This document shows, one piece after another, positions 1,584 through 63,447 of a stretch of DNA of 64,000 nucleotides. The position numbers and the translations under genes are program-made. Origin of the DNA: Eledone cirrhosa. Lineage: Eukaryota. Below the pieces are notes generated by a model, which saw only the letters and a program-made list of their open reading frames with translations, made no database searches and was not told the origin of the DNA. The number at the start of each line of letters is the position of its first letter. Position 1 is the first letter of the stretch. The stretch lies in contig OZ024746.1 in the NCBI GenBank assembly GCA_964016885.1, forward strand, positions 35,526,001-35,590,000, read 5' to 3'.

Positions 1584-2525
1584 TTCTACCTTTCATCATA
1601 CTATTTCCATTTTTCTGTCTTAATATCTTATATTATTCAATCTCTTCCGTAATATTTCTATTCACGTTTTATTTTTCATTTTTGCTTTCGTGTTCGAACT
1701 TCCTATATACTTAACCCTTGTTTTTCATCTCTGCAAATCAATGCAATATATCTCCCGGTAATATTCAATTTTTTCTCATAATCAAACCGCTTCCACTCCA
1801 CCCCGTTAAAACGAAAGAAAAAATTTCGCTTTATGCACGAAAGTATATGGAAAGCAATCAACGTACCCCACATCTTAACGTTAGTTTTGCTGGAAATAAA
1901 TCTATATCCAATACATACGATTGATATATCATCCTATCTTCACCTATTTCTTTTGTTTCATTTGAGTGTTTTACGCACATGTATTTTTAAATCACATTCA
2001 TCATGGCCAACATAAAAAATGAAAAAAAATATTAAATAAAGAAATCATAAAATCAAGTGAACGGAATAATAATAATTTCATAAGTGATGCATCTTCTGTC
2101 AAAACTTACATTTATTTAACGAAATAAAACATTAAAATTATCTTCCACTCCCTCCAAACCTCTACCAAGAAGAAAACATTAAGATAGTAAAATGAAAAGT
2201 CTGTGAAAGAAAATATATGAAGATTTGTGACATGACATGTTAGAAGAAGGAGCTGTGAAATTCTCAATAATTTTATGTTTTGCGTGACGGATATCATTTT
2301 TTTTCTATTGAAGAACCGCATTGAACGGAATTACCTTCCCCAACTCTCTAATCATTACAAATATATGACAAATTGAGGGAAAATAAATTTCCATTTATTT
2401 GTTAGTTACATACGTCACCTGAAGATTAAATATGTTGGGTCATATCTGCAACATATCTTGCAATAGCATTTATTAATTGCCGTTACAAATGGATTGTTAT
2501 TATTATTATTACGTGGTATTAGTAT

Positions 2526-3308
2526 GAGTTCAAATCCCGTCGAGGTTAACTTTCCCTTTCATCCTTACGGGGTCGATAAAATAAAGTACCAGTAATACAC
2601 TGGGTATTTTGCTGGCCTTGTGCCAAAAGTAGAAACAATTATTATTATTACGAGGGGGTGGATTGCCAGTATCGGTAGAGGGTCGGACGCCATGCTTCTC
2701 AGCAAAGCGTTACGGCCCATTATGATATAAGTTCAAATCCCGCCGAGGTTAACTTTGCCTCACTGGGTTGATAAAATAAAGTACCAGTCACGCACTGGGT
2801 CGATTTAATCGACATTCCTCTCCCTCAAAATTGCTGGTCTTGTGCCTATATAAGAAACCATTATTATTATTACGCGGGGGTGGATTGGCAGTATCAGTAA
2901 GGGGTCGGACGCCAGGCTTTGCAGTAAAGAGATACGGCCCTTTATGGTCTGAGTTCAAATCCCGCCGAGGTTAACTTTGCCTTTCATCCTTACGGGGTCG
3001 ATAAAATAAAGTACCAGTAATACACTGGGATAATTGCTGGCCTTGTGCCAAAAGTAGAAATAATAATTATTATTACGAGGGGGTGGATTGGTAGTATCGG
3101 TAGAGCGTCCGACAACATGGTTCACGGCTTAGAGTTAATGTTATTTACGTTCTGAGATCACACTCCACCGAGTTTAGCTTTTCCTTTCATCATTACGGGG
3201 TCGATAACATAAAGCATCAGTAATGCACTGGGATCGTTTTAATCGAATCAACTTTCCCTTCAAATAGTTGGCTTTGTCCCTAAATCAGAAATCATCCTTA
3301 TTATTATT
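2526..3308 (+). mobile_element. Head-to-tail array of four tRNA-derived SINE copies (first 5'-truncated)
   Basis: Units start near 2526, 2651, 2873 and 3077; A-box-like TGGCAGTATCGG, B-box GAGTTCAAATC, core CTTTCATCCTTACGGGGTCGATAAAATAAAGTACC, (ATT)n tails. Confidence 0.85.
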
Positions 3309-3319
3309 GATATCTGCTT

Positions 3320-3780
3320 TGCAGAGTATGCCATTAAAGAGGCGAATCTGTGGCACACATTGTTAATAGATGTGAGCAATCAGGAAAAAATGTCACAAAA
3401 TCCGGCATGATGTTATCGCAGAAACCTTCATTGGGAGTTGTGGCAAACTTACAACATCGAAATGTACTCTCAGTGGTACGAACACCCACCTCTTAAATCC
3501 TGGTTTTCAGTTGAGGTAGTAAAGTTATTTTGGGACTTTGAGATCAAGACCACAAACAAAGTCCAACAACACGGCTCTGATATTGTTGCAAAAACAGAAA
3601 ATCCCTTAAATTGGATTCTAATTAATATTACGGTTCCCGAAGACCTCAATGCGGCTGTAAAGGAAATGGAACAGATCTATACGTATGCAAATTCTGCAGG
3701 CGATATAAGTACCGCGCACCATGTAGACATAAGCGTCGTGCAAATCACCATTGGGAGGCTAATCACGGTCCTTAAATGAC
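3320..3780 (+). pseudogene. Decayed C-terminal RLE domain fragment of an R4/Dong-like non-LTR retrotransposon
   Basis: RHD motif upstream of ORF 3438-3779; KLFWDFEIKT...SDIV...INITVP resembles the RLE domain at 13379-13912. Confidence 0.6.
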
Positions 3781-16544: not shown

Positions 16545-18339
16545 TACAACTACATCACCAATTCAAAAGCAGAACCAGCCACTTCTACGGTATCCCCAAG
16601 ACACACAAAAGCGAAGTAATAGGTAGGGCCTGCAAGCACGCCACAGCTGTTTAAATCAATACAGCCCCTCCTGATGACCTTAAATTAAGACCAATAATAG
16701 CAGGCACCAGATTTGAAACCCACTGCCTAAGCAACTTCCTAGATATTCTGCTTAAACCTTTCCTAAAACACATAAAAAGCTTCATAAGGGACGACCTTTA
16801 CATGCTCAACCACCTCACAACAAGACTCAATAATGAACATACCCTATTAGTAACCTTTGATGTCATCAATTTATATTCCAATATCCCACACAACCTAGGT
16901 ATAGAGGCAATACCATTCTGGATGGATAATTTCCCTAGGGAACTCCCACAGCGCATCCGTAAAGAATTTGTGTTGGTGGGACTCAAATTCATCGTGGAAA
17001 ATAATTTCTTCGAATTCAATGCCAAATACTACAGATAGAATTATGGGACTGCCATGAGCACGAAAATGGCCGCCTCATACGCCAACCTTGTCATGAGATA
17101 TTTGGAAACCACTCTCTACCGCAAAGTTCTAGACAAATGCGGAAACCACTTCTACCAACACATAGAAAAGAACTGGAAGAGATATCTGGCCGACTGCTTC
17201 ATCCTCTGGCATGAAAGTATAGAAAGACTGTTGAGTTTAAAACCCTTCGGAATGGACTCAACACAAACTTACAATTCACAATGGATTACAGCCATGAACA
17301 ACTTCCTTTCCTCGACATCCTCATCAAGAAAACAAGCAACGAAATAGAAACAGACATATGTTTTGACCTGCTCAGGTTGTCAAGAGCACTACATAGGACA
17401 GACAAAAATTAGCCTCCGTCAACGTAAGACCGTCCATAAATCACAAATTAAAATACAGGAATACAGAAAGATTGCATTCAGTGAACATATCGCAAATTGT
17501 GCTCACAACCAACATCCAAACCTTAAAATTTTCCCCATTTAGAAATTCATAGACATCGCTACTTTCATCCAACGTACCAATAAGGAAACATAATTCATTA
17601 ACAAATTCCAACCTTTATTTAATGCTCTAAAAATCGGACCGATCTAAAACAGCAACAAACAATAAAACATTTACAAGAGTTACCTCCCTCACACCCTACC
17701 TAAACGTTTTTCTTAAATAAATTAAATATCATCCAGCAAGAATTGCTTCCCCCTGCATATTAACTGTCTAAAAAGGGAAATCATATCAAACCTCAGTCAA
17801 CCATTTGCCTCCATCATAGAATCATGAATCAACTAAACACTCTTGCTATATTAACACATTTTGGTCTGCTTAACTTCAAGAACTATGCCTGTAAATAACA
17901 TTATTTTTTCTTCCACATTGACTTGTTATGCTCTACATTATGCCCGTTCTCTTTTTCTTCTTTCTTTTTTTCTTTTTTCTTTTTTCTTTTCACTTCATAA
18001 ACATGGTTTGTAAATAACATTATTCTTTCTGCACCTTCTCTTTAACATGTGTGACACCACACTGATACATTTCACTATCATTTGATAATGGATAAAAATG
18101 CTGAAACCGGTAATAGACAATTATTAAATATATAAATAGATAAATAAATGTCATTGTTAAATAATAAATAAATCAACTAATACCTTAACACTTCATACAA
18201 AGTAAAACATTTCGTTTTAATCATTTTCTAACCCAGAAAAAAGAGAGAGAGAAACAAAAAAGGAGAAAACAATATATTTTTCTTCCTAATTTCATATATA
18301 TATCCAAAAAAGGAGAAAACAACATATTTTTCTCCCTGT

Positions 18340-20102: not shown

Positions 20103-21173
20103 TGAGAACAGGGTGAAAGAGACGATTATTAGGAAGAAAAAAATATTTGTTTCCCTTTTTATTTCCTTCTCTCATTTTTCTGGGTTAGAAAATGACTAAA
20201 ACGAAATGTTTTACTTTGTGTGAAGTCTTAATATATTAGTTGATTTATTTATTAATTAATAATGGAATTTATTTATCTATTTATATATTTACTCATCGTC
20301 TAATACCGGTTTCAGCATTTTTATGCATTATCAAATGATATTAATATGTATTGGTGTAGAATGGCGGTGTTGCACGTGTTAAAGAAATGGTGCAGAAAGA
20401 ATCATTTTATTTACAAGTCGTGCAGAAAGAATAATGTTATTAATAAGTGAAAAGAAAAAAGAAAAAAGAAAAAAGAAAAAAGAAAAAAGAAAAAAAAGAA
20501 AAAGAAAAAAGAAAAAAGAAAAAAAGAAAAAAGAAAAAAGAAAAAAGAAAAAAGAAAAAAGAAAAAAGAAAAAAGAAAAAAGAAATAATAAAAAAAGAAA
20601 AAAAGAAAAAAAAGAAAAGAAAAAAGAAAAAAGAAAAAAAGGAACGTAATGAGGAGCATAACAAGTAATGTGAAAGAAAAATGAATGTTATTTACAGGCA
20701 GATCAAAATGTGTTAATATAGCAAGAGTGTTTAGTTGATCCATGATTCCATGATGGATCAAATATGCTTGCAAATAACACTATTTTTTCTTTCACTTTGA
20801 CTTTTTATGCTTCACATTACGCCCCCTTTTTTTTTCTTTTTTCTTTTCACTTCAATAACCTTGTTTGTAAATAACATTATTCTTTCTGCACCATTTCTTT
20901 AACATGTGCAACAGCACCATTCTACACCAATACATATCACTATCATTTGATAATGCATAAAAATGCTGAAACCGCTAATAGACAATTATTAAATATATAA
21001 ATGGATAAATAAATTCCATTATTAATTAATAAATAAATCAACTAATACTTTAACACTTCACACAAAGTAAAACATTTCGTTTTAAACAGTTTCTAACCCA
21101 GAAAAAAGAGAGAAGGAGATAAAAAGGGGAACAAATATTTATTTCTTTCTAATAATCGTCTCTTTCTCCCTGT

Positions 21174-55027: not shown

Positions 55028-57290
55028 TAATATCGAGCAGTTTTATGAATAAATATTGAGATAACCTTAAAGAATGCAACTATTACTGTTGGAAGCTCCC
55101 GGATAGTGGAGTTATAACTTTAATTATATTATTAGGTAAGTTAGTATTGGATATTTTTAAATAAGCCGTTGGGTTACGGAGAAAGAGAAAGAGAAAGAAA
55201 GAGCAGAACAACAGAGAGAAAAAAGATAGAGAGAGAGGAGACAGAAGAAAGGAGAGAGAACGAAAACTCTAAGTCATATCTTGTTGAGTTATCTTAACAT
55301 TTGAGATGACGTATAAATAAATAAAATTAGAAATGTTAATAATCATGAATGGAATATACATATATAATATGAGAAATTTTACCATTGTTTAAATATGATT
55401 AGATGTTTAGTTAATCAGTTAAATATTGAGATCAATACATTAAAAATTGGGATCTATATATTAAGAATTCTATATATTATTATTAAGACTATATTGTGAA
55501 AGATCTATATATTATATAACACGTATACACACGCAAAAATACATACATATAAATATATATACACACACGTATAAAACTATATATACATATCTAACTACGT
55601 ATATAATATATACATACAAAATATAAAGGATTCTTTAATTTAAGATATAGGAGTCTTATAAAATCAGAGAAAGTTATTTCAATGTAGTATCAAAGCAGCG
55701 TGAAGGAAAATTACGTTATTTAGTTATATCAATGTTACAATTGTTGAGATATTAAAGGACATTTTATGTTATACACACTTTATTTTATTACATAAAACAA
55801 ATTTGTTTTATATAAGTTTTATAAGATTACCTCTTATGTATTTATGAACTGTTATTATATGTTTATTTGTCACGAATCTTGGGATAATCCCTATAAATAA
55901 GTGCAATCGAATTGTATGGATATACACGCACATATACATACACAATTCCTACATATACATACATATATAGGTAGATACGCATCACGTATATATATGCATA
56001 CAGAAATACATACACGCATAAAACATATGTACATGTATATCAATACACACATACGCATATATATACACACATAGAGAGAGAGATGTATATATAAATACAG
56101 TACATAGTATAATTGAAGTACATAAAATACAAAATAATTATATTACGATTTGGAAATATAATTATAAGCAATATAACATTAAAAACAATATAACTTTAAA
56201 ATTATTATAGAATATTTCAAGTTATAATTTCAAAATAATAATATCTTTAATAGATTTAGTATAGAAATTATCTACGTATATTTAACTTAATTTTATATCC
56301 ATAAGAGAAATAAACAGAAACTTTCAAAAGATAAACCTTCGAAAATAGGATAAACTATCAAACAATAAAAAAAAAAAAAAAAAAAGATAAAAAATATTTT
56401 CCCCCTTTAAGAGCTTTCAGTATATTTCTCTAGAATAGTTTATTATATTTATTTACATTTAGGAAGAAAAGTTTTTTTTACTTGAGTGTATAAGCAGTTA
56501 AAAAATAAAGGAATCTAATGATTTATCGACAGGTTCAATATATTAATAGAATTAATTAATTATATATTACATTTTAAATTTATATTTAAACGTTGAGTTT
56601 AATTTATGTCTACAGCAACTGAATAAATTGTTCCTTAGGTTCAGGAAACTTTTGGTCTTTAATATAAAGAATATTTCCTCTATACAAAGATCACAATTTC
56701 CTGAAGAGGAGTTAAAAGGAGTAGCATTTGAAATAATATTCCAAATCAACGAATATTCAACGTTCTTTAGTTTGAGGTCCCATAATAAGCTAGATAGAGA
56801 AGTTGAAAATTTTTTGTTTGGATCTGGAAAATAATGTTTATGATTATTGAAGCGGGATTTAAACTCTGTGGAAGTGGATCCCACATAATTAAATGAATTT
56901 AAATTAGTTTTTACATTACAATTATATACTATATTTTTAGCTAAGCAATTGTTATTTAACGGACAGTTAGATCTATTTCTACAGTTACATTTATCAAATT
57001 GGATATTGCTTGGGTTATTAGTGGTGTTTTGGTTAGGTTTTAAATTTCTATTATTAATTCTATTAATATTTTGCGCTAAATTTTTGGTGGAAGAATAAGT
57101 TAATTTTATAGTATGTCTATTAAAAATTGAGTAATATCTATGTGTTCTAGGGAAGCATTTGTCAAAGGCTTTAAAACATAGTTTAGCAATAGGGGTTTTA
57201 ATATTTAATGAGAAAGGAGGGGCGAACCATAATATGTTCCTAGTTCTATTTCTTTTTCCGCTTTCGGAATTATTGTATTGTTTTCTATTA

Positions 57291-58278
57291 TCTATATATA
57301 TAAAACTGTGGTTGTCTGTCTGTCTATCGATTTTTGGCACACATCTCCTCTTAGAATCTCTCACGGAATTGCACCGAAATTGCTATACTTGTACATTGAT
57401 CCCTAGCGAAGACATCGGAAAAAAAATATTTCAAATTGACCCACCCTATGTGACGAAATCGAATATAATGTGTCGATTTTTGAGCGTAAGTTATCAGTTA
57501 TTTCCCTTTGTTCTGTTTACATTGAGCGTCTTACGTAAAAAATTACGCTGGCTTTCTCAGCGTTTAAAATGACATTAACACAATACACGAACAGTTGTCG
57601 TCGAGCCAGCAAAATATTGACCTGCAAAATTCATCAGTTCGAACAATAAGCTTCCGTTTTGCTTCATTTCCATTTAAAAGCATTTTAAAACAATATTTTT
57701 ACTTGAAAACAAGTCTATTTAAAGACTACGTAAAACAAGCAAATATTTCGTCGTTAGGCGTGCAGACAGACAGTCGTGCAGACAGACAGTCGTGCAGAGA
57801 GGTGATATACGCGTGCAGACAGTCAGTCGTGCAGAGAGGTGATATAGGCGTGCAGACAGACAGTCGTGCAGAGAGGTGATATAGGCGTGCAGACAGACAG
57901 TCGTGCAGAGAGGTGATATAGGCGTGCAGACAGATAGTCGTGCAGAGAGGTGATATAGGCGTGCAGACAGACATAACTGATAATTTGGTTACGCTAATGT
58001 TTTTCTCTGCGTTGCAGTGTTTACATTTTCGATCTTTGTTAATAAATAACCAGTGCAGTTTCTATCCCCAGCATCCTCTTTTGTTATAACATTTGGGTTA
58101 TCGTTATGTTTTCTTAACTTCATAAGGCATATTGTTGGTTGAGGGAATATTAATCAAAAACACCACATGCAAGTCTGCACAGTAGACACTACAGTTTTTA
58201 AGCCAAGAAAGAAACTTAACATTGTAACTTTAACACAGCTACTGAGCGACCCCGAGCAACGCCGGGCTTTACTGCTAG
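57291..58278 (+). mobile_element. Non-autonomous Helitron (988 bp) inserted in the PLE ORF
   Basis: 5'-TC start, 3'-CTAG end, subterminal hairpin CCCGAGCAACGCCGGG, inserted between A and T with no TSD; removal restores the reading frame NNY|NRKQY. Confidence 0.85.
57757..57972. repeat. ~37-bp minisatellite inside the Helitron
   Basis: Unit AGGCGTGCAGACAGACAGTCGTGCAGAGAGGTGATAT, about 5-6 copies. Confidence 0.9.
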
Positions 58279-59854
58279 TAGTTGTTAAAATTGTTAAAAT
58301 AGTTAAAATTGTTACGATTAGTGTTAGTTGTTATATTATTATTTTTATCAATGTATTTAATTTTATTTCTATACCCAGCTCTACCTAACGCTTCGTTGTA
58401 ATAATGTGCTTTTTCATCAAATATATTCTTATTAGCTGACATTCTCGAAATTCGTTCCTGTACAGAGTTCACTATAGTATTTTTAACGGATCTGGGGTGA
58501 TTAGAGTTAAAATTGACGTAGTTTAAGTTCTCATTTAGTTTGTGAAATGGATAATGAAGACATCTGTTAAGATTTAGTGTTACATCTAGAAAGTTAACTA
58601 TTTTATGGTTATTCTCTATTTCTACTTTTAGATTAAGGTAATTAAAAAATTGTATAATTTGTTTTCTTTTTCTATTTAGATCACAGCTATTATTTTCTAT
58701 AAGTAGAAGCATGTCGTCAAGATCTAAACCTCCGGTTATCTCAGGTATTTTCCTATGTAGAGAATTATTTATAAAGAGGCCCACAAGATCCGTTACCTGA
58801 GCGGAATCGGGTGATCCCATAGTTATATCGAAGTTATTATTTCTATCTGCCCTAGTCCAAAGTTGGTTATTATATTCTATTAATGTTTTCCGTGCCGATA
58901 ATATAATGTGCATTTCATTGCTAGTTAGGTCTGTATGTTTAAATGCGTAAGTTAGTGCTTTATTCAGTAGATTAGGAGTGATAGAGGAGTAATAGTTAGC
59001 AATATCCAACTGAATAAACTTATTATTATAGTTATATTTAATTTCCTTAAACCAATCGATAACTTCACTAGTTACTTTCCATAATTTTAAATAAGATAAA
59101 TTCTTAATTTGTGGTATTATTCTGTCTAGAATATTTTTGCTAAGTCTGCCCAGGTCCGATTTAGATGGTGCAATTAATCTGACTGGTAAATCAGTTTCGA
59201 AGTTCCTTTTATGATCCTTCATATTAATCTTAGGTTTCCTTGGCATGAAGGGTTGTGTCCTATTTTCAATGCCTAGTTCATGCATTATATAAGAGGCATC
59301 TGTATTCAATTTTTCAAGGTCGTCTTTATTTGCTACTTTGTATTTCTTCCTTAATTCCTTTAATATAAGATCGTTATAAATGTCCTTTTGTATTCCGTAA
59401 AGATTATTGGTTTTGTCAGATTTGACTAGAATTTTCTCCGTTTTCTCCAAGTTTTCAATATTATTTTTAATATTTCTTAACTACTCGTGGCCTTTGAAGT
59501 TGTTTTTGAATTTGATGCTTTGGATGATAGATATGATATCATTTTCAAAATCCATTAGTAGTTTGTTGGGGGGTGAAATTTTTTTAGATTTGAAGATTTT
59601 ATCCAGATTGGAGACATTTTCATTTAGATTAGATTTATCGAAGTGGAAAGCACGCCACCTTATTCTTCTTATAAAAGAGTCTGATTTTTCTATTAATTGT
59701 TTAATAAAATCTTTATTCCTAGGTAAAGGTATGTCCTTTAGAGAAGAAGATATCTTAAAGAATTCCATTTTACAGTTATAATATAAAGCGCTCGACAATA
59801 CAGGAGCAGAATATATATACATATATATTATATATATATATTATATATATATAT

Positions 59855-61400
<1,546 letters not shown>

Positions 61401-62748
61401 TGTAGTGCAGTTTCAAGAGTATAGATAAATGAAAAAGATCTGTCTATGTTAAGTTCAAAACTAAATTACATTATTATAAATATATTTTCAACGCAATTTC
61501 TTACTACCTAAAACCTCAATACCACACTTGCATAGTTCTTAACGATGTTATATCTTCTAGTGCTGCTTATCATTCAGCTAATAACAAGATGACTGACCTT
61601 ATTTACATATCTCCTAAAACATAATGGAGGTATTAATAATGTTACTATAAAATTGGCATTTTTGTTATTCAGAATGAGTAATTCATTTGTCAGTAGTTTT
61701 TTTTTTTAAATCTTACCACTCAAAATAGACGTAAATGTAAGAAAATAAGTATAACACGGTGTACATCCCTTAATCTCTAGCAGTCGTCACTAACTTAGGC
61801 AAAACATTCTTATACTTAATAGACAAATATTTCCAACCTCAACAGGGAATTTCTCATCATGCATACTGTGAAGATCTGCTACTCCGGCTGACCTTCCATG
61901 AAGGCAAAAATAAAAAGTACCTGATGTAAATTTGGGATGTTCATGAAGGACCAATAAACATGTAACGTCAAATCGGTCGTATACGAAGCAACCTACATAC
62001 AATTTACAACCAATGAAACAGTCATCAAAGAAAAAATACGTGGGTATGACACAAGATGTGTTTAAACAATGGTACCATTCTCATATCATGCGTTTCAAAC
62101 GCTAGGATAGAGAACAGCTATGTGTTAGGAAAATCTTGTGTGGGAACTGAAAGATAAATCTACACCGTACGTGATTATATGAAACCGGCTGGAGAAGAAC
62201 AAATAGATGTTCACCTTAACACAGTGAAAAATTATAGCTATTACTGGGGCTGAAATCTTCGGATAAATACCCAAAGATAAACTGGAGTTATTTAGACGAT
62301 GCCTACATATAAAATAAAATATCCTTGAAACATGAAGGAATACAGGCCAAGGCACACAAATCACCATTATTGTACACCAGCTATAGTTCCCTGTATTGGT
62401 GTCAGGACTAAACTCACATCATACTGCACCCAGACACATATACCTACAACAAGCTATACACAGGCTATACACATAACACATGCATTTTGAAACAAATACA
62501 TACAGTACTCCACCTATATTTAAAATATACATATAAATACACACTGACATTACTTATACTTTAACAAATAAAGGTATAATTACATTAAACAAATATAAAC
62601 ATACAGGCACAGGAGTTATTCCACCTGAATAACAAGAACACCAAATGCATTATTACATTATTACTACATCCCTTTAACTTGACGTGAACTCATGTACATA
62701 ACGTCGGGCATATAGGCATAGTACAAAGGATAAGCAACCCTCGCAGAT

Positions 62749-62853
<105 letters not shown>

Positions 62854-62989
62854 TAGAAAGTGAGGTTTTTTTTACAAAATGAAAAATAACCGAGGTGTCC
62901 TACACGAGTGGAAGTATAAAGAAAAAGGGATGAAATCGAAAATGCAACTGAAGTCTTATTTTTTTAAAAATATATATATTTATTTGGTT

Positions 62990-63027
62990 CCTTTACCGGT
63001 TTCGCAGTTCTTCTGCTTTTCAAAAGG
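62990..63027 (-). ncRNA. Minimal hammerhead with U3:A8 core (mirror copy)
   Basis: Exact reverse complement of 63103-63140. Confidence 0.75.
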
Positions 63028-63102
63028 TGAGTTGAGATGGAGGGTCTGTGGTTTTTCTCACATCAGATGTGAGAAAAACCACAGACCCTCCATCTCAACT
63101 CA

Positions 63103-63140
63103 CCTTTTGAAAAGCAGAAGAACTGCGAAACCGGTAAAGG
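63103..63140 (+). ncRNA. Minimal hammerhead with U3:A8 core
   Basis: CCTT-TTGAAAA-GCAG-AAGAA-CTGC-GAAA-CCGG-TA-AAGG: perfect stems I and II, palindromic CCGG stem III, GUA triplet. Confidence 0.75.
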
Positions 63141-63209
63141 AACCAAATAAATATATATATTTTTTAAAAAAATAAGACTTAAGTTGCATTTTCGATTTCA
63201 TCCCTTTTT

Positions 63210-63318
<109 letters not shown>

Positions 63319-63333
63319 TATATACATACATAC

Positions 63334-63375
<42 letters not shown>

Positions 63376-63407
63376 GTATATATATATATATATATATACA
63401 TACATAC

Positions 63408-63440
<33 letters not shown>

Positions 63441-63447
<7 letters not shown>

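Follow-up and report, generated by a model that had tools for sequence, protein, structure and literature searches.

A U3:A8 hammerhead motif in a probable fold-back copy of a young Penelope-like element from Eledone cirrhosa

The window, a 64,000-nucleotide stretch of the genome of Eledone cirrhosa (contig OZ024746.1), contains a hammerhead motif with a U3:A8 core. This motif is probably the hammerhead of the pLTR of an abundant, young Penelope-like element (PLE), and the locus around it a promoterless, 5'-truncated fold-back copy in (TA)n that is likely to have arisen by reverse transcription of a short uncut RNA. U3:A8 in PLE hammerheads and pairs of motifs on opposite strands are known already, as are inverted truncated copies and tails (PMC4209133, PMC3088659 and PMC8557442). 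The additions made here are modest: the scale of the U3:A8 dominance, and a suggestive, testable hint of cleavage in vivo.

Sequence and predicted fold of the motif

The 38-letter motif is present as the preliminary description stated (Table 1). The halves of stem I are CCTT (63103-63106) and AAGG (63137-63140). The core TTGAAAA (63107-63113) corresponds to U3, U4, G5, A6, A7, A8 and A9, and stem II is formed by GCAG (63114-63117) and CTGC (63123-63126), with AAGAA as the loop between them. The 3' portion of the core consists of GAAA (63127-63130), CCGG (63131-63134), T16.1 (63135) and A17 (63136), and the scissile bond is predicted at 63136/63137, after A17 (GUA). The conserved core (position 3, U4, G5, A6, position 8, A9, G12, A13, A14, A15.1, U16.1, and an H17 that is not G) is found complete within 63107-63136. 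Helix II is closed by the G10.1-C11.1 pair, and stem I, with 4 bp, lies within the 2-5 bp of the short helix I of PLE motifs. There is no extra nucleotide between A9 (63113) and G10.1 (63114), which follow each other directly, and the motif has neither this nucleotide nor the larger helix II of the min-HHR consensus of Cervera 2014.

Among 77 sampled copies, the core is intact in 66, and positions 3 and 8 form a U3:A8 Watson-Crick pair in all 77. In 41 of them stem I is down to 3 bp, with A and G mismatched at its fourth pair. Among 100 listed core matches, 99 have U3:A8 and the remaining one has a G at position 3. The identification as a hammerhead-type motif with a U3:A8 core is thus borne out, both by the sequence and by the genome counts against reversed controls (see below). 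That this core is surprising is not supported: it was reported in 2011 in natural hammerheads, where it is stated to be active in vitro (Perreault et al. 2011, PMC3088659), and for PLEs three years later by Cervera and de la Pena (2014, PMC4209133), who had about 1,300 matches in Schistosoma mansoni.

For the excised 38-mer, stems I and II form with a minimum free energy (MFE) of -6.4 kcal/mol (z = -0.94; 37 of 200 shuffles are equally good), and the best fold also pairs U3 with A17. In the predicted native transcript the pair probability is 0.13 for stem I and 0.90 for stem II. In an RNA that spans the palindrome it is predicted to be 0.0 for both stems; the predicted structure of this RNA is a hairpin of -248 kcal/mol, which buries the one sense motif of each strand. 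The motif had been described as cleanly folding. This holds for the stems of the excised 38-mer but not in view of the z score, the U3-A17 competitor and the burial in a hairpin at the locus, and by these predictions the clean fold is dependent on context.

Upon co-folding of two copies, the intermolecular pair probability of ACCGGU is predicted to be 0.92-1.0. The double-hammerhead fold has an energy of -18.9 kcal/mol as compared to -20.3 kcal/mol for the MFE fold, which carries U3-A17 pairs. As this U3-A17 fold lies 1.4 kcal/mol below the active dimer fold, cutting would be expected to be slow and dependent on a partner or a protein, as reported for PLE motifs. PLE hammerheads are reported to show dimer cleavage of low activity (PMC4209133) and are described in a review as cleaving as dimers (PMC6765202); the hammerhead of the Anolis PLE system is protein-assisted (PMC11167929). 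The U3-A17 competitor resembles the C3-G17 trap described for minimal hammerheads in PMC3884650.

Organization of the locus

The motif and its mirror copy lie in the two arms of a head-to-head palindrome (Table 1). The stretches 62959-63064 and 63066-63171 are 99% complementary, with a 1-nt spacer. Alignment of the arms, which are 212 nt (left, read on the minus strand) and about 150 nt (right) in length, shows 2 differences in 148 positions. The statement in the preliminary description that the motif is present on both strands is correct in that an identical minus-strand copy exists. However, as both copies belong to one palindrome centred at 63065, the two-strand occurrence reflects one event, not two. 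The tail is found in one arm only, and in tandem copies its sequence is that with which the following unit begins.

Table 1. Features of the palindromic locus, in window coordinates
Positions	Strand	Feature	Basis
63103..63140	+	Type-I hammerhead motif, U3:A8, stems I and II of 4 bp each	Sequence, fold
62990..63027	-	Motif in mirror orientation, opposite arm; scissile bond predicted at 62994/62993	Sequence, identical copy
63130..63135	.	ACCGGT, self-complementary (A15.1 to U16.1), predicted dimerisation helix (helix III)	Co-folding of two copies
63065..63214	+	Right arm, element positions 1 to ~150: pLTR from predicted transcription start to first 3' end	98.7% identity to L050 1-151
62853..63064	-	Left arm, element positions 2-213: pLTR and tail	100% identity over 218 nt to L050 5' pLTR
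62853..62914	-	62-nt tail, one arm only; 68 nt including TA microhomology to 62847	Copy comparison
63065	.	Palindrome centre, element position 1, predicted transcription start	5' ends of copies
62749..62852	.	Left flank, target microsatellite rich in (TA)n	
63213..63442	.	Right flank, target microsatellite rich in (TA)n	

The TATA box that the parent element has at position -30 is missing here, and by its sequence the window copy is therefore without a promoter of its own. Any read-through RNA is predicted to be a hairpin of about 150 bp that buries the motif, so the window copy would be a relic.

The parent element

A DNA search of the animal's own genome (3.0 Gb) gave 143 candidates, of which 40 were scored and 30 loci fetched. 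The scored copies are 91-100% identical to the window query, and some of them extend upstream into a UTR of about 1 kb located behind a GIY-YIG frame. A piece of the GIY-YIG protein has 11,516 candidates in the genome, many within 775-aa frames. Twenty such regions were fetched, and the order pLTR, ORF1, ORF2, UTR, pLTR is found in L049, L050 and L051. The unit is 4.68 kb long and there is one hammerhead per pLTR; in L050 the two hammerheads flank the ORFs on the same strand, 4,679 nt apart. The parent PLE, which the preliminary description had proposed to locate, is hence identified, with the left arm in the window matching the 5' pLTR of L050 completely.

ORF2 (775 aa) matches the Pfam families GIY-YIG with E 3.7e-6 (above the cut-off) and RVT_1 with E 4.9e-6 (below the cut-off). 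Two cysteines are located between GIY and YIG in the ORF2 protein P0002, LIYAIKCKGCNEDYIG, and the linker CGRSNCGTC in front of the endonuclease fits CX2-5CxxC (as CxxxxCxxC). From this protein sequence, the parent is assigned as an EN+ PLE, with an RT followed by a C-terminal GIY-YIG domain. The hallmarks of PLEs are present, namely partial tandems (pLTR), an inverted 5'-truncated copy, and a tail at one end. The architecture (linker, microsatellite target) is the basis for a putative placement in the Neptune/Nematis clades. The 12 intact copies of ORF2 are 98.8-100% identical, which points to a young family. One locus (L048) holds a tandem pair of intact 775-aa copies, 3.9 kb apart, with an inverted pLTR before each.

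The two ORFs overlap at U_UUU_UUA, with ORF2 in the -1 frame; this arrangement is identical in all 13 listed copies and would give one fused protein. The ORF1-ORF2 junction is likely a site of programmed frameshifting, to judge from this arrangement. The ORFs of the parent are at 2260-3461 and 3371-5698 of L050 (C1:399392000 region), ORF1 having 400 aa and no Pfam match, and a hairpin is found downstream of U_UUU_UUA. In a degenerate copy (L198) of the family with 57% identity, ORF1 ends at a U run and ORF2 is in the -1 frame. A frameshifted ORF1 is allowed in the legend of Fig. 1 of PMC8557442, which names no clade for it.

Copy number and conservation between families

Exact matches in the genome number 11,663 for the 30-nt core pattern and 17,841 for a 20-mer that lies downstream of the motif; the reversed control is 0 for both. 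The UUGANAA-type pattern search suggested by the preliminary description, with TTGANAA-N10-24-GAAACCGGT, gives 23,474 CCGG-loop matches (control 57). The corresponding pattern CTGANGA-N10-24-GAAACCGGT gives 118 (control 157), among them one real repeat family. Among CCGG-loop cores of the Eledone cirrhosa genome, to which this comparison is limited and which are not a full hammerhead census, U3:A8 thus outnumbers C3:G8 by about 200 to 1. The U3:A8 core is also unchanged in contigs of five other organisms (X4, X5, X7, X8 and X9, a few contigs each).

That CUGANGA searches miss the motif, as had been predicted, is confirmed by these counts and by the lack of a hammerhead match in Rfam. A search of Rfam over 63085-63160 gives three matches at E ≤ 10, none of them to a hammerhead family; a local MALAT1 match (E = 2) and the two weaker ones were treated as chance. 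Among the best 150 of 318 Rfam matches in the whole window none is a hammerhead, and nearly all are miRNA-like matches on repeats and palindromes. Ribozymes may be undercounted, as also suggested earlier, in so far as 23,474 CCGG-loop cores stand against 118, but these numbers count transposon copies, mostly dead, and not ribozymes shown to be active. With 118 of these cores found by CUGANGA and 23,474 by UUGANAA, hammerhead surveys of such genomes need both descriptors.

Most of the 100 listed C3:G8 matches belong to a small repeat family (L189, L196) with a canonical CTGATGA core and GAAACCGGTC, the stem II of which pairs poorly. The C3:G8 copies L190 and L191, within the lineage, were considered as evidence for covariation and set aside, as chance should produce about two double mutants in some 20,000 copies (an estimate).

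Four U3:A8 families have the stem II sequences GCAG/CTGC, GATGG/CCATC, GATG/CATC and GCAT/ATGC. Three of the four are located behind PLE ORF2 homologues (the parent, plus homologues of 57% and 50-53% identity), and one of these three is the 18075 family of the window. At least four stem II pairs are present in 17 of 45 distinct inner sequences as compared to 1.9 expected by shuffling, these sequences not being independent (most are variants of one family) and their core letters being fixed by the search pattern. The pairs were counted by script, and MAFFT misaligned stem II between families. In the sister families stem I is reduced to as little as about 2 bp, and some older subfamilies keep just 2-3 stem II pairs. 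A G at H17 is found in one copy only when all motifs of the fetched loci are counted. The conservation within a family reflects recent amplification and not selection, whereas the structure shared between families does carry weight.

Formation of the copies

The ends of the copies were mapped from 100 listed matches of the downstream 20-mer, a sample that is blind to the 5' end. The 3' ends are near position 151 in 39 of the 100 copies and near 219 in 58. In 48 copies the 5' end is at -2 to +9, that is, at the predicted start 72 nt upstream of the scissile bond, and an inverted partner is located directly upstream in 54. DNA reads have loose ends at the same 5' place (position 1). Upstream of it, the parent has TATAAAA at -30, CCAAT at -79 and GCGCGAAA at -108, which we take to be TATA, CCAAT and E2F-type sites, respectively. 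Position 1 would therefore be a transcription start, driven by a TATA promoter in the 3' UTR. A promoter in the pLTR has been described before, as TATA-less and internal (PMC2377424) or with a putative TATA (PMC3846280).

The short copies are solo or head-to-head, with inversion points from far upstream to +137. Among 15 scored loci, which include the best matches to the window (and are hence biased) and two misaligned ones, eight different junctions are found, the junction of the window being the commonest (6 of 15); the comparison of arm versus arm is not decisive in these loci. As there are eight kinds in 15 loci, formation of the palindrome at each insertion is favoured. In two copies (C1:395478765 and C1:115113288), the leader near position 18 is joined straight to 72-77, and the hammerhead is deleted.

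A mechanism can be proposed from these observations. Transcription from the TATA promoter in the 3' UTR would begin 72 nt before the scissile bond. The lone motif in this RNA would barely cut, given a helix III of 2 bp, a stem I of 3-4 bp and an A17 that is open to pairing with U3; an ACCGGU duplex and a cut after GUA would need two motifs or the protein of the element. As a result, most templates would stay uncut, and a minority are probably cut. The short copies would be cDNAs of RNA that is uncut at position 72/73 and was reverse-transcribed to its start, and the palindrome would arise by fold-back at the end of the cDNA. PMC3846280 invokes self-priming on an antisense template instead. Cutting of full-length RNA at both pLTRs would free a unit-length RNA; after circularisation, this RNA could be copied again together with its upstream promoter.

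5' ends at the scissile bond

For several sites, we counted the copies that begin there after a TA run. The start site has 721 raw matches (286 on the strand without duplicate counting), and the scissile bond has 60 distinct ones (84 rows counted by hand). The control sites have 7 (position 50) and 4 distinct ones (a GTA/A site at -17), which, scaled for the copies at risk, predict about 8 and about 13 as compared to the 60 observed (binomial p 4e-11 and 2.5e-4). In searches of equal design, ends or indels number 545 at 64-77 and 244 at 31-44. About 32 of the first 100 listed are ends at 70-75 (hand count), a broad rise with no sharp peak. In the blind sample ends at position 73 are found in 2 of 100 copies, too few for a test.

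This excess is tentatively suggestive of a footprint of cleavage in vivo. The scissile site is the sole TA within the first 72 nt, and some of the TA runs derive from the partner arm. Alternatively, the excess may come from RT stalling at or below the stems. A broader reading, which we put forward with rather less than even confidence, is that the genome holds a fossil record of cutting in vivo by a U3:A8 PLE hammerhead, that the U3-A17 pair is a built-in brake, and that U3:A8 took over at least four PLE families of this lineage, at some 200 to 1 over C3:G8. The function of PLE hammerheads is called unclear in PMC8557442. With a young family of near-identical intact copies, a predicted start, and a small excess at the scissile bond, cutting of PLEs in vivo becomes directly testable.

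Alternative explanations

A chance hammerhead look-alike in repetitive AT-rich DNA is refuted by the 23,474 matches against 57 in the reversed control. The compensatory changes of stem II between families and the location in the pLTR, the known place of PLE hammerheads (PMC4209133), also go against it, and we give this explanation practically no weight in spite of the non-significant folding z-score and the absence of a hammerhead match in Rfam. It is unlikely, though a more serious prospect, that the motif is catalytically dead, being a passenger in the pLTR or a protein-binding or RT-pausing structure that never cuts. Such a motif would fit the weak and variable stem I, the U3-A17 pair in the MFE folds of both monomer and dimer (analogous to the C3-G17 trap in PMC3884650), the extension of most copies through the uncut site, and the finding that PLE insertion in vitro is unimpaired by hammerhead mutants (PMC11167929). 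It would not fit the complete core and paired stem II in four families with differing flanks, the single copy with G at H17, the activity of U3:A8 in vitro stated in PMC3088659, or the excess of 5' ends at the scissile bond.

The remaining alternatives concern the start site and the palindrome. The pile-up of 5' ends at position 1 could mark a splice acceptor (CAG) or an RT stop and not a transcription start, with the rest of the reading unchanged. The sequence there is ...AACCAG/ATG, and according to PMC4209133 the Penelope element of D. virilis has a pLTR intron that ends at helix I. However, the AG here is not preceded by a pyrimidine tract, TATAAAA is located exactly at -30, and the short copies are preceded by a microsatellite or an inverted arm, with no common upstream exon among the 100 listed, which makes a splice acceptor or RT stop quite improbable. 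It is very doubtful that the 360-bp palindrome is a self-propagating, non-autonomous, retrozyme-like mini-element with one ribozyme per strand. The exact junction of the window does recur in 6 of the 15 scored loci, all of them (in this biased set) of the ACC subfamily or its point variants. Yet eight junctions exist in these loci, the inversion points range up to +137, the single sense motif of each strand is buried in the -248 kcal/mol hairpin, and the unit is short, has no promoter, and is without head-to-tail arrays.

Comparison with known systems

As in the PLE hammerheads of PMC4209133, there is U3-A8 covariation, a G10.1-C11.1 pair, a short helix I and a small palindromic helix III. The location in the pLTR, the mostly solo copies, the opposite-strand pairs (dual motifs 100-700 bp apart there) and the predicted action as dimers are also shared. 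In most min-HHRs there, an extra nucleotide separates A9 from G10.1; the motif here lacks it and has a stem II of 4 bp. The ratio of U3:A8 to C3:G8 is 23,474 to 118 here (CCGG-loop cores) and about 1,300 to about 2,000 in S. mansoni. In the variants of PMC3088659 the Watson-Crick pair 3-8 is exchanged in the same compensatory way; unlike in those examples, the passages on which give no retroelement context, the residue at position 17 here is an A that can pair with U3.

The parent is similar to the Neptune/Nematis EN+ PLEs (PMC8557442, PMC3846280) in its RT and C-terminal GIY-YIG, CX2-5CxxC linker and partial tandems. The insertion units also correspond (Craig et al. 2021; Arkhipova et al. 2013), with an adjacent inverted 5'-truncated copy, a palindromic head-to-head junction, a tail at one end and a microsatellite target; the inverted copy, tail and (TA)n bias of PLEs are described in PMC8557442. 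There are differences from the elements of these two papers, however. The tail is 62-68 nt here and 30-40 there, two overlapping ORFs joined at U_UUU_UUA are present in place of one, and the hammerhead is in the 5' leader, 72 nt after the predicted TATA-driven start.

For the Poseidon element PAc of Anolis, Frangieh et al. (2024, PMC11167929) found that the RT starts at two internal sites, by which the tail is defined, and that it mainly uses uncut RNA; likewise, two fixed 3' ends bracket the tail here, and uncut RNA would be the main template. The core of PAc is C3:G8, and no reads were found at its cleavage site, whereas the corresponding site here has a small excess of genomic 5' ends. Non-LTR retrozymes (PMC7229834; bioRxiv 10.64898/2026.07.22.740005) are also short, non-coding and PLE-related, with a type-I hammerhead, but they consist of head-to-tail units of 170-400 nt with canonical motifs and circular RNAs, in contrast to the head-to-head, two-arm stub here. 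Our literature search, with subscription papers mostly outside it, found nothing on the dominance of U3:A8, nor on 5' ends of genomic copies at the scissile sites of PLEs.

Other elements in the window

A second hammerhead family, at 18075, differs in stem II and flanks, in agreement with the preliminary description, which treated the two as separate. It also has U3:A8, with the core TTGATAA and an extra U on either side of stem II. Its region of the window includes 16562-17629 (+), 18075-18119 (+) and about 20300-20340 (-). PLE ORF2 fragments (53% to P0002) precede the motif at 18075 by about 450 nt, and its inverted partner is located at about 20128-20491.

At 56567-59480 (-), broken frames have 20% identity to P0002 (E 0.14) and no relevant Pfam match; from RT-like and GIY-YIG-like motifs, this stretch would belong to a distant Penelope-like family. 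Beside the palindrome, at 61900-62300 (+), there are fragments that are presumably decayed GIY-YIG-like sequence, to judge from their motifs. This stretch was considered as the parent and rejected, having no match to the DNA or protein of the element. A fragment at 60091-60486 (+) resembles, by its motif, a LINE reverse transcriptase.
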